Virus record (IMG/VR): IMGVR_UViG_3300027891_000004
Span: 1-64,000 of that record
Direction: 5' to 3' (one strand)
Source: a virus
Lineage: Duplodnaviria > Caudoviricetes
Length of the DNA: 64,000 bases
How positions within the stretch are numbered: the stretch's first letter is position 1; each line of letters starts with the position of its first letter. The notes beneath the pieces are model-generated. The model was given only the letters and a program-made list of their open reading frames with translations. It was not told the DNA's origin and did no database searches. A program made the position numbers and the translations under genes. Shown one piece after another: positions 9,526 through 37,660 of this stretch.

Positions 9526-10065
9526 TCATGCGATGGCGACGAATTCCCCGTTGACAAGTTTGTACGTAACGCCCGCTTCAATATCCTTACCAACAATGCC
9601 GCACTTGGCGTTAATAATGTTCCATTCATCGTCGCGTTCGACAAGGAAAATAACACTCCCCGGTTTGGTTGCCCTCGCGGTACAATCCAGGCCCGTCGCT
9701 ACGGCCACTGAATTTTCTCCTTCGACAATCGCAATCGAGTCTTTACCGTTTACAGCGGCAATGCTATACTTTCCGGTATTACTTGAACTGCTTCGATTCC
9801 CGGTGTTACTTGAACTGCTATACTTTCCGGTGTTACTTGAACTGCCTCGATACCCGGTGTTGCTTGAAAGGCTATAATTCCCGGTGTTACTTGAACTGCT
9901 ATACTTTCCGGTGTTACTTGAACTGCTTCGATTCCCGGTGTTACTTGAAAGGCTCCAATCCCCGGTGTTACTTGAAATGCTTCGATATTCGGTGTTACTT
10001 GACATGGCAATAATCCTTTTTGAAAAATGTTTTTGAATTTTGTAAGGTTCGTTCCTTACACACAT
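9526..10065 (-). CDS. N-terminally truncated paralogue of 30862..31563 (NTG repeat protein)
   Basis: About nine SSNTGxxS repeats (27-bp period); 3' ~230 bp highly similar to 30866-31101; N-terminal domain absent. Confidence 0.6.
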   Translation of the reverse strand: MCVRNEPYKIQKHFSKRIIAMSSNTEYRSISSNTGDWSLSSNTGNRSSSSNTGKYSSSSNTGNYSLSSNTGYRGSSSNTGKYSSSSNTGNRSSSSNTGKYSIAAVNGKDSIAIVEGENSVAVATGLDCTARATKPGSVIFLVERDDEWNIINAKCGIVGKDIEAGVTYKLVNGEFVAIA

Positions 10066-10124
10066 ATTTCAATAGATTCGTAGAGCAAGTTTAAAAGAAA
10101 AATATATTCAGAATCGCTATTCGT

Positions 10125-10385
10125 TCCCATTGTGGTCCGCTCTCTATCGTAGAAAGACGCCCGGAGGCACGGGGAACCGTAACGAAAACCGTACCTCCGG
10201 AGCGCACGAAACCGGGGATTGCAGGACACGCGTAAAACATGTGCCGAGGCACAAAAGACGATTTATCAATATCTTTCGTTCAGCCGCTACAACCAAGCGA
10301 ACTTGGACAAAGTCACGAAACTCACCTCGGCACACGCTACTACTGCCGGACCACGAAATGCTAACTATCCTGCAGCCTCGCGCTT
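10125..10385 (-). ncRNA. Candidate structured ncRNA with long-range pseudoknot, family not recognised
   Basis: Stems 10132-39/10347-54, 10161-72/10189-200, 10220-26/10368-74, 10237-50/10324-37; UUCG hairpin 10293-10306; G-U pairs form only on the minus strand. Confidence 0.6.
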
Positions 10386-10546
10386 GTTCTACAAAACAAA
10401 TATGCGGTCGTAAGAATTAAAAACAAGATCAATTTTCGGTAAGGCAACCCATGATTTTTACACAGCCTGCTTGAAACTTGTCTAATTTTCCGCATATTAT
10501 AAAAGTCGAATTCAAATCTATTTCTTTATCAGGGGCACCAAACGGC

Positions 10547-10882
10547 ATGAAAAATCTAAACGAAAAACAAATAGCGTACTATACGAAAATGTACAACAGA
10601 ATGACGGACGAGGAAAAAGGCGGAATTTCCCTTGAGGAGTGTTTGAACTTTTTTGACCTCAGTTACGAGACGATGGGCAATATGGTACGCAATGCACACA
10701 GAATGGCAGAGGAGGATTGGTCCGCCTTTCATGCTTCTATGAACGCATGCGCCAACCAAGCGTTCACTGATTCCGCAACACGCGATATGCCCAAAATGTC
10801 ATTAGAAGAAATATCTGCCGGGTGGAAATCAAAAGTTAGAGAATGCGAAGAGTTTTTAAAAAAACAGCGCATCGAACCGTAA
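10547..10882 (+). CDS. Hypothetical protein
   Basis: ATG 10547 with AGGGG upstream and a sigma70-like TTGTCT...TATTAT promoter. Confidence 0.6.
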   Translation: MKNLNEKQIAYYTKMYNRMTDEEKGGISLEECLNFFDLSYETMGNMVRNAHRMAEEDWSAFHASMNACANQAFTDSATRDMPKMSLEEISAGWKSKVRECEEFLKKQRIEP

Positions 10883-11322: not shown

Positions 11323-11349
11323 TGTGTTTTAATTGAAAGAACAATTTTT

Positions 11350-11403
11350 GTAGTATCCTACGTAGCATCCTACAAAAACGTAGCACCCTACGTAGCATCC
11401 TAC
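11350..11403. repeat. Four 12-bp dyad units GTAGyAyCCTAC, operator or arm-site-like
   Basis: Units at 11350, 11362, 11380 and 11392. Confidence 0.8.
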
Positions 11404-11406
11404 AAA

Positions 11407-11430
11407 AAAGCCCGCCACGTGGCGGGCTTT
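11407..11430 (-). terminator. Dispersed palindrome copy 4, positioned as terminator of the fibre/lysis operon
   Basis: AAAGCCCGCCACGTGGCGGGCTTT; T6 follows the stem on the minus strand; 17 nt past stop 11448. Confidence 0.8.
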
Positions 11431-26808: not shown

Positions 26809-27237
26809 TCAATCGGATTCCGTATCTCTGTTTTTATATTTCTCTTCCAATTCTTTCATAAGCGGGTCGTTATCCAGGTCGATTTTCTCATCGTCCTCTT
26901 GCGGAGTCGGCTTGTGTTTTTTCGCATGATCGACAAGCGTATCGACCAATTTTGGATCTATTACGATAAACAAGTACCGGAGCACGCACGCCTCGTTTTG
27001 GAACAGGTCCGATACCGCCTTGATCCGTTCGGGATCGCACCGAAAATAGGAAAGCCAGTAAATAGCTCGCAAATGGCCGGGAACTCCGTAATTCAAAGTA
27101 CGTTCGTTCCATAGCGAGCTGTGAAGCATCTCGCCGCCCTCCCGCCCGACCATTTCGGCAAGACGTCCCGAAACGGCGTCCGGATTCTCGTCGTACATCG
27201 ATGCGTCGAGCACAAATAGCCCTTCATAAACGTTCAT
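26809..27237 (-). CDS. rpsF: 30S ribosomal protein bS6, planctomycete type, phage-encoded
   Basis: NVYEGLF.LD...Y..NP..VSG...EM....GGEML.S.LW.ER.L.Y...G.....YWL.YF.........LRYLF...DP.LVD.LV.HA plus acidic tail. Confidence 0.85.
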   Translation of the reverse strand: MNVYEGLFVLDASMYDENPDAVSGRLAEMVGREGGEMLHSSLWNERTLNYGVPGHLRAIYWLSYFRCDPERIKAVSDLFQNEACVLRYLFIVIDPKLVDTLVDHAKKHKPTPQEDDEKIDLDNDPLMKELEEKYKNRDTESD

Positions 27238-37158: not shown

Positions 37159-37179
37159 TATTTTGATGATAGAACGGCA

Positions 37180-37222
37180 GAAGTAGGCATATCGGCATGT
37201 AATACGCCGATATGCCTACTTC
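37180..37222. repeat. 17-bp perfect inverted repeat upstream of the HD gene
   Basis: GAAGTAGGCATATCGGC-ATGTAATAC-GCCGATATGCCTACTTC. Confidence 0.85.
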
Positions 37223-37267
37223 CGACGAAAACGCAAGAAAAATATCGGGATGATGCTAAGTCTACGA

Positions 37268-37320
37268 AAAAATTCTCTAGTGCGCCCGATTCCCAAAGTT
37301 TACTGATTTATGATATAAAT
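37268..37320 (+). promoter_or_regulatory. Third copy of the AAAAATTCTCTAGTGCGC promoter box
   Basis: Near-identical to 25793-25845, with TGATATAAAT 25 nt after the box. Confidence 0.75.
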
Positions 37321-37366
37321 CAGCGAAGGTTTTATTTCATTCGTAAACCTTATCCACAAAATTACC

Positions 37367-37660
37367 ATGCAAAAGTTAGCAGATATCTTCACGTTTTCGA
37401 GGGCCTACCCCGCCACGTGGCGGGGTTTCAACGTTTGCCGCCGCAACAGCCGACCAAGTGAGTGTAGACGGGCGACGAAACGGGCGGCCCGTTGTACGTC
37501 GAGTTGGCCACCGGCATTTTATCATAAACAGGCGGACTATGTTGCATCTGGGTATGGAAAAATTCCTTCTTCCGGAAGCTACCGCAGGTACGGCATTGTG
37601 CTATGTCAAGCCCAAGATTACATTTGGCGGTCTCCGCCATTCGGAAGTGTAGGCACGGTC
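37367..37660 (+). pseudogene. Degraded leader-family gene (frameshift plus palindrome insertion); 3' end approximate
   Basis: MQKLADI, then a frameshift, then GTT TTC GAG GGC CT (VFEGL), a 21-nt palindrome, and CAA CGT (QR); early stop. Confidence 0.7.
37407..37426. repeat. Dispersed palindrome copy 7
   Basis: ACCCCGCCACGTGGCGGGGT. Confidence 0.95.

Follow-up and report, generated by a model that had tools for sequence, protein, structure and literature searches.

What does the longest non-coding stretch of a phage genome that is 92% coding contain, and if it is a structured RNA, on which strand would it lie and of what kind would it be? The phage is known from the IMG/VR virus record IMGVR_UViG_3300027891_000004, which is linear, 167,820 bp long and 48% GC, with an estimated completeness of 94%; the window, meaning the whole stretch of DNA analysed here, is the first 64 kb of that record. 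By gene calls, the stretch in question is a spacer of 541 nt (10006-10546), in which a reading of the sequence alone had seen a large pseudoknotted RNA encoded on the minus strand. We have followed this proposal from the spacer and its neighbours to the predicted fold, its excess over chance and its relatives, and from there to the role that such an RNA might play.

The spacer and its neighbours

The minus strand carries nearly all genes of the phage, and the strand of the candidate RNA is that of the flanking operon. The length of the spacer is taken from gene calls because greedy ORF tiling, a crude measure that left no other gap longer than 335 nt, covered the spacer itself with spurious ORFs. 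Two independent gene callings (JGI and ENA) leave it without a gene, and the ORFs that overlap the element have codon-usage scores between -0.14 and +0.01, those of the flanking genes being 0.09 to 0.26. The sequence-only reading was thus right that no credible ORF overlaps the element, and a hidden small gene is ruled out by this non-coding codon usage. With 50-60% GC, the element is an island in flanks of 29-37%. It is followed on the minus strand by the gene for the DUF7666 protein, whose AUG at 10005 is preceded at 8 nt by AAGGA, and a 681-aa gene with weak similarity to GyrB.

Several observations concern the surroundings rather than the element. Just upstream of it, a 39-aa ORF (10429-10548, minus strand) has gene-like codon usage (0.169); it is uncalled by the gene callers and belongs to no family, and its ATG overlaps that of the divergent 111-aa gene. 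The start of the DUF7666 gene (9770-10005, minus strand) encodes a run of SSNTG-type nonapeptide repeats at the N-terminus of the protein in tandem units of 27 nt, and their number differs between samples: the ENA copy, otherwise identical, is shorter by 45 residues, or five repeats. Elsewhere, the genome encodes a Phage_portal_3 portal, and intein or homing-endonuclease domains (Intein_splicing, LAGLIDADG_3, Hom_end) are found in clamp-loader-like, PolA and terminase genes (L007:7423-9447, L007:9520-11436 and L007:16237-19377). The sole tRNA gene of the 168-kb record is a tRNA-Met with the anticodon CAT (genome 74553-74625, minus strand; L003:14553-14625). The phage also carries a bS6 ribosomal protein (26809-27237, minus strand) whose nearest Atlas clusters are mostly from Planctomycetota, a hint at the host; a scan of reference genomes with bS6, aimed at reaching host genomes, gave no close relative.

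Table 1. Genes that flank the spacer, and predicted helices and strands of the element (window positions).
Feature	Position	Strand	Remarks
Divergent ORFan gene, 111 aa	10547..10882	+	codon-usage score 0.237; start bounds the spacer; transcribed away from the spacer
Downstream gene, DUF7666 protein, 159 aa, SSNTG nonapeptide repeats	9526..10005	-	
Outer closing helix P0, 5' strand (CGCAUAUUU..UUUGUAGA.CAAG)	10383..10406	-	partner 10089-10061
P0 3' strand (10089-10061, contains AUG at 10065) and 7-bp hairpin (10060-10041)	10041..10089	-	
5' strands of P2 (10383-10375) and stem A (10374-10366)	10366..10383	-	
3' strands of A (10228-10220) and P2 (10212-10204)	10204..10228	-	7-nt bulge between them
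Stem A, UGCAGGA/UCCUGCA	10374-68/10226-20	-	7 Watson-Crick pairs; extendable to 9 bp
Strand B/B', GUGGUCCG/CGGACCAC	10354-10347/10139-10132	-	8 Watson-Crick pairs; -13.8 kcal/mol
Core domain, P3 (4 bp) and 15-bp stem (10338-10324/10250-10236)	10232..10343	-	
14-bp stem	10337-24/10250-37	-	11 Watson-Crick and 3 G-U pairs
Hairpin H12, 12 bp + 4 bp, 15-nt loop, then GUCUUUCU	10157..10205	-	pair probability ~1.0
12-bp hairpin	10200-189/10172-61	-	1 G-U pair
Short hairpin CUUUCUA-CGA-UAGAGAG	10140..10156	-	pair probability 0.91 in the 451-nt context
Strand B' (CGGACCAC, 10139-10132) and extension	10109..10139	-	

Predicted fold and its excess over chance

All helices that the sequence-only reading had listed are present, the four main ones exactly as described (Table 1). 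On the minus strand, the core of 276 nt (10395-10120) has an MFE of -107.7 kcal/mol, and forcing stem A to form costs 0.4 kcal/mol (-107.3 kcal/mol). P2, with 9 bp including 4 G-U pairs, stacks on stem A, and strand B sits in an asymmetric internal loop of 22 nt, from where it can pair further in the 5' direction, as far as 10372. A three-way junction of the hairpins 10323-10310, 10306-10282 and 10279-10251 is closed by P3 together with the 15-bp stem. Three elements are fixed in the ensemble (pair probability 0.98-1.0), namely this stem and the hairpin 10279-10251, both at 0.98, and H12 (10205-10157), while the other two hairpins of the junction reach 0.4-0.6. The hairpin 10306-10282 has two alternative folds, and its CCAAG-UUCG-CUUGG version (10306-10293) has a probability of 0.38; the UUCG loop is here closed by G-C, whereas in the stable UUCG hairpins of the T4 type it is closed by the classical C-G. 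A direct repeat (D1) relates the 15-bp stem to H12, their 3' strands agreeing to 72% over 18 nt, with tails that are also similar, and a UUUCGUG motif occurs three times, each copy complementary to ACGAAA at 10279-10274. The direct repeat and the motif copies point to internal duplication and to further alternative pairings.

The wider anatomy was obtained by refolding 10450-10000, a context of 451 nt. With the flanks included, the domain becomes one of about 10406-10041, closed by the outer helix P0, which has 21 bp in segments of 9, 8 and 4 bp (pair probabilities 0.92, 0.90 and 0.73; duplex -17.5 kcal/mol), and the hairpin 10060-10041 has a probability of 0.92. A perfect 9-bp inverted repeat (10399-10407/10490-10498; AAUAUGCGG ... 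CCGCAUAUU on the minus strand) provides a second, upstream partner for the 5' strand of P0, and AAUAUG occurs in both alternative partners.

The sequence-only reading took A and B to form a long-range pseudoknot. The strands do cross, and the B core and A do not overlap, so that a pseudoknot is sterically possible; its energy is about that of the nested folds (-102.1 kcal/mol with the B strands held free plus -13.8 kcal/mol for the duplex, a sum that excludes the loop penalty). The crossing therefore stands, but the pairing goes beyond what the folds establish: in the 451-nt context B is extended to an interrupted helix of 23 bp (10372-10347/10139-10109; -22.1 kcal/mol) that is nested and replaces P2 and A, with a probability of 0.53 against 0.29 and 0.40. 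B alone does not support a pseudoknot either, a single 8-bp helix such as B/B' lying within chance (26% of shuffles). Because B extends to 23 bp and competes with A, the models put a conformational switch, or simply a nested fold, on a par with a pseudoknot, and the data as modelled allow a pseudoknot, a two-state switch or neither.

As to whether there is more structure than chance would give, the MFE of the core corresponds to a z of -3.9, with 1 in 200 dinucleotide shuffles as good, and the 451-nt context has a z of -3.07, which none of 100 shuffles equalled. There are five perfect helices of at least 7 bp where 1.4 are expected, a number attained in 1% of dinucleotide shuffles. Within the genome, scanned in sliding windows of 276 nt with correction for GC, the element ranks 17th among 3644 window-strands (z -2.55), and the non-coding gaps have a mean z of -1.34 (sd 1.87), several of them exceeding the spacer of the candidate. 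The element is not an outlier within its own genome, and its excess over chance is smaller than its appearance suggests.

The most strongly structured non-coding gaps, both well ahead of the element, are 37159-37427 (z -8.2), in which a dispersed palindrome of the phage is present, and genome 163955-164127 (L008:13955-14127; z about -5). Between the 202-aa and 141-aa genes, dense direct and inverted repeats (TTTTTGTAGGATGCTACGTAGG...) at 11330-11415 make up one of the most structured windows of the genome, and this cluster adjoins one of the CCCGCCACGTGGCGGG palindromes, here with a T-run.

The comparison of the two strands supports a structure of several helices on the minus strand: the plus strand of the same 276-nt core reaches -82.2 kcal/mol and a z of -2.0, against -3.9 for the minus strand, and G-U pairs number 15 in the minus-strand MFE structure and 6 in that of the plus strand. 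The further claim that the G-U pairs fix the orientation is too strong, as the minus strand is G+U-rich (58%) and the asymmetry is partly compositional. Owing to the G+U-rich sense strand, the minus strand has an average advantage of 7.1 kcal/mol over the plus strand in folding energy across the phage genome, and the asymmetry of the core (-25.5 kcal/mol) ranks 88th of 1822. Nor can the orientation be taken from the whole spacer, whose z on the plus strand equals that on the minus strand (-3.57 and -3.07).

Known RNA families and relatives of the locus

No match to Rfam 15 (4227 covariance models) was found in the window at gathering thresholds, and the rest of the genome gave one tRNA only. 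At E values of up to 10, the interval 9800-10700 gave only two chance matches to snoRNAs, upstream of the element. ARAGORN reported neither a tRNA nor a tmRNA in the window, which together with the Rfam result bears out the earlier statement that the element has no tmRNA or RNase P signature, the hallmarks being a tRNA-like domain with a tag ORF for tmRNA and a conserved P4 with the CR-I/CR-V core for RNase P. A number of specific identities were tried and rejected. In a group I intron, the 5' strand of P7 should come after P4-P6, whereas here B precedes the large stem domain; the element is also intergenic and has no match to an Rfam intron. For a retron msr-msd or DRT-type ncRNA there is no RVT_1 match in the 168-kb record, control genomes being positive; for an OMEGA/TnpB guide RNA or an IS110 bridge RNA there is no match to PF07282 or PF02371 in the genome; and for a bacterial Y-RNA-like RNA (YrlA) there is neither a Ro60 (TROVE) match in the genome nor one in Rfam. 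The element is not a copy of the dispersed CCCGCCACGTGGCGGG palindrome, which has a different sequence, and no second copy or paralogue of the element was found in the genome. A conserved cis-regulatory leader of DUF7666 genes was likewise rejected: upstream of three homologues (50-56% identity) the spacers measure 97, 15 and 112 nt, and a covariance model of the element (R1) had no match in them at E up to 10. The DUF7666 paralogue in the same genome (30862-31563) lies directly behind another gene.

Neither the element nor its surroundings led to a family. A blastn search in distant mode against 50,697 phage records gave no match to the element, and in IMG/VR, searches guided by the portal and by the 179-aa and 681-aa proteins gave as their sole match a 43%-identical DUF7666 gene at the end of a contig. 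The 681-aa and 141-aa neighbours were matched by identical copies only in a set of 5.8 billion cluster representatives; four flanking proteins are single-member clusters, and no record turned up for two neighbouring proteins in exact look-ups. The locus itself was recovered as identical copies only, in three samples: the JGI contig L010 is 100% identical, and an ENA contig of 165,450 bp agrees with it in gene order and spacer length, the loss of the 45 residues of DUF7666 repeats being the only difference in the neighbourhood. The nearest relative of the portal (58% identity) is on a contig of 7.5 kb, and the IMG/VR portals retrieved with a family alignment are 33-41% identical. Judged by these comparisons, the phage lineage is an orphan. 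Model R1 found only itself in the genome, nothing in about 20 IMG/VR records of portal relatives (34-39% identity) and in the record that holds L002, and no match on the fetched loci. Searches by pattern returned 16 loci for the stem pattern in IMG/VR viral contigs and 2 for the B/B' pattern in JGI metagenomes, of which R1 matched none (0 of 18); the two B/B' loci, read directly, are unrelated, GC-rich, coding-like DNA, and all the loci returned are taken as chance matches. Because no homologue was found, there is no family and no covariation, and the undescribed class that had been proposed comes down to one sequence. As it stands, the element is a candidate that awaits proof, not an RNA class shown to be new.

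Possible roles of the element

The reading that we favour, with a probability of about 40%, is that of a structured leader or small RNA on the minus strand that may act on the downstream operon. Minus-strand transcription of the 541-nt spacer would yield a structured RNA of some 250-370 nt, either as the 5' leader of the DUF7666 / ParB-GyrB-like operon or as a stand-alone small RNA. Its stable core would consist of the three-way junction closed by the 15-bp stem and of a 16-bp hairpin, surrounded by long-range helices that could be mutually exclusive (P2/A or the extended B helix) or joined as a pseudoknot. The outer helix would pull in the region directly upstream of the DUF7666 gene, and the RNA would act in cis on the downstream genes, its folding governing processing, stability, termination or how accessible the start site is. 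The helices, their thermodynamic excess over shuffles and the absence of a coding signal and of a known family are shown here; transcription, strand, ends and any function of the element are things that we infer. A search for sigma-70-like promoters upstream on the minus strand gave none, and those promoter-like sites that it did find face only the opposite way; the sole promoter signal of the minus strand is a perfect TATAAT at 10501-10496 without a recognisable -35 element. A promoter of the Bacteroidota type was rejected, the enrichment of TAnnTTTG being only mild. No canonical terminator was found after the element.

The fold might also be fortuitous, and we consider it possible, if on the unlikely side, that the spacer has no dedicated function and that a few inverted repeats, perhaps arisen through internal duplication of a hairpin module, fold well without any selection on an RNA. 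The GC-corrected rank of only 17 in 3644, the gaps with a mean z of -1.34 (sd 1.87) of which several are ahead of the spacer, the 8-bp helix found in 26% of shuffles, the 72% likeness over 18 nt of the 3' strands of the two main stems and a sequence kept in no relative found are all as this account would have them, but five long perfect helices in only 1% of shuffles, a core z of -3.9 with strand asymmetry and a spacer of 541 nt, unusual for a phage that is 92% coding, are not. It is unlikely that the element serves as a set of transcription terminators, as an insulator or as an mRNA-processing site (for example of the RNase III type), keeping the downstream operon apart from the late genes upstream of it and from the antisense-oriented 111-aa gene. 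The GC-rich 16-bp stem of H12 runs into GUCUUUCU, but the hairpin has a loop of 15 nt and a weak U-tract, and the phage's clear terminators are of the type GC palindrome plus T-run, as at 11411. A scan for intrinsic terminators (GC-rich stem, loop of 3-8 nt, adjoining U-tract) flags only 10253-10240, a local hairpin of 5 bp within the 3' strand of the 15-bp stem, followed by UGUUUUAC, and this hairpin needs the 15-bp stem to be open; the stem itself spans 103 nt, and directly upstream there is no gene end on that strand. The stacked P2, A, P3 and 15-bp stem and the extended B helix of 23 bp would provide double-stranded RNA of a size suited to RNase III. At the intercistronic sites of phage T7, RNase III processes long irregular hairpins of ~60 nt each, which resemble the candidate as long, irregular and stable helices on the sense strand between late genes; the T7 sites are single hairpins, whereas the candidate is a predicted branched domain of at least 250 nt.

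More doubtful still is a new, pseudoknotted class of phage ncRNA, of ~270-370 nt with a three-way-junction core and B/B' as a long-range tertiary helix, belonging to an unsampled lineage of 168-kb phages whose hosts may be Planctomycetota and working as a ligand- or protein-responsive switch or as a ribozyme. We regard as improbable a role at the level of DNA, in which the element beside the ParB-like / GyrB-like gene would be read in double-stranded or extruded form and not as RNA, whether for replication (an origin), for partition or for the binding of a protein, or would be what is left of a small mobile element. The plus-strand z of the whole spacer, as good as that of the minus strand (-3.57 and -3.07), would suit it, as would three of the 24 copies in 168 kb of the heptamer CACGAAA falling within 150 bp, AT-rich outer arms that are imperfectly complementary (I1, I2, I4, I6), an AT-rich stretch (29% GC) after the G-rich core and the weak GyrB similarity of a neighbouring gene; yet the core is 25 kcal/mol better as a minus-strand RNA with 15 G-U pairs, it has no second copy in the genome, the cumulative GC skew has no turning point at 10 kb and the dispersed parS-like palindrome of the phage has a different sequence. 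Hardly credible, finally, is a self-cleaving ribozyme with the nested double-pseudoknot fold of HDV. The order A, B, stem, A', hairpins, B' does correspond to P1, P2, P3, P1', P4, P2', as had been remarked, a likeness of topology only. The core of HDV-like ribozymes has a P3 of about 3 bp capped by L3, a P1.1 of 2 bp and a catalytic C in J4/2. The candidate, several times larger with its span of ~250 nt, has no such compact core or short P3/L3/P1.1, and the equivalent of P3 is the 15-bp stem that closes a three-way junction of 73 nt, in agreement with the sequence-only reading, which saw no HDV catalytic core; no model of the HDV family matched even at E up to 10, and the stable fold does not need the pairing of B.

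GOLLD and ROOL are large ncRNAs borne by phages and prophages, with multi-domain folds, long-range pairings and a function that is unknown; they are about 500-800 nt long and widely conserved, and Rfam models of them exist. A structured leader or small RNA as favoured here would be smaller, at about 270-370 nt, and it is a single sequence that does not match the Rfam models of GOLLD and ROOL. A closer comparison is with the 10,006 candidate structured RNAs (csRNAs) of phage intergenic regions that comparative genomics and covariation have brought to light (Fremin, Bhatt and Kyrpides 2023, PMC10690425). As they are summarised there, the csRNAs share with the candidate a place in a phage spacer upstream of a gene, a predicted fold of several helices and the lack of an Rfam family; they show covariation, whereas the candidate, for which no homologue was found, would fail such a screen.

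By the same summary, structured candidates of phage spacers that lack a class already run into the thousands. A single sequence cannot define a class, and for the present the element has the value of a lead. Should it be transcribed and adopt the predicted fold, it would be another large structured RNA of phages, from a lineage with almost no sampled relatives, and its long-range helices, mutually exclusive or pseudoknotted, would, if true, make it a candidate regulatory switch.
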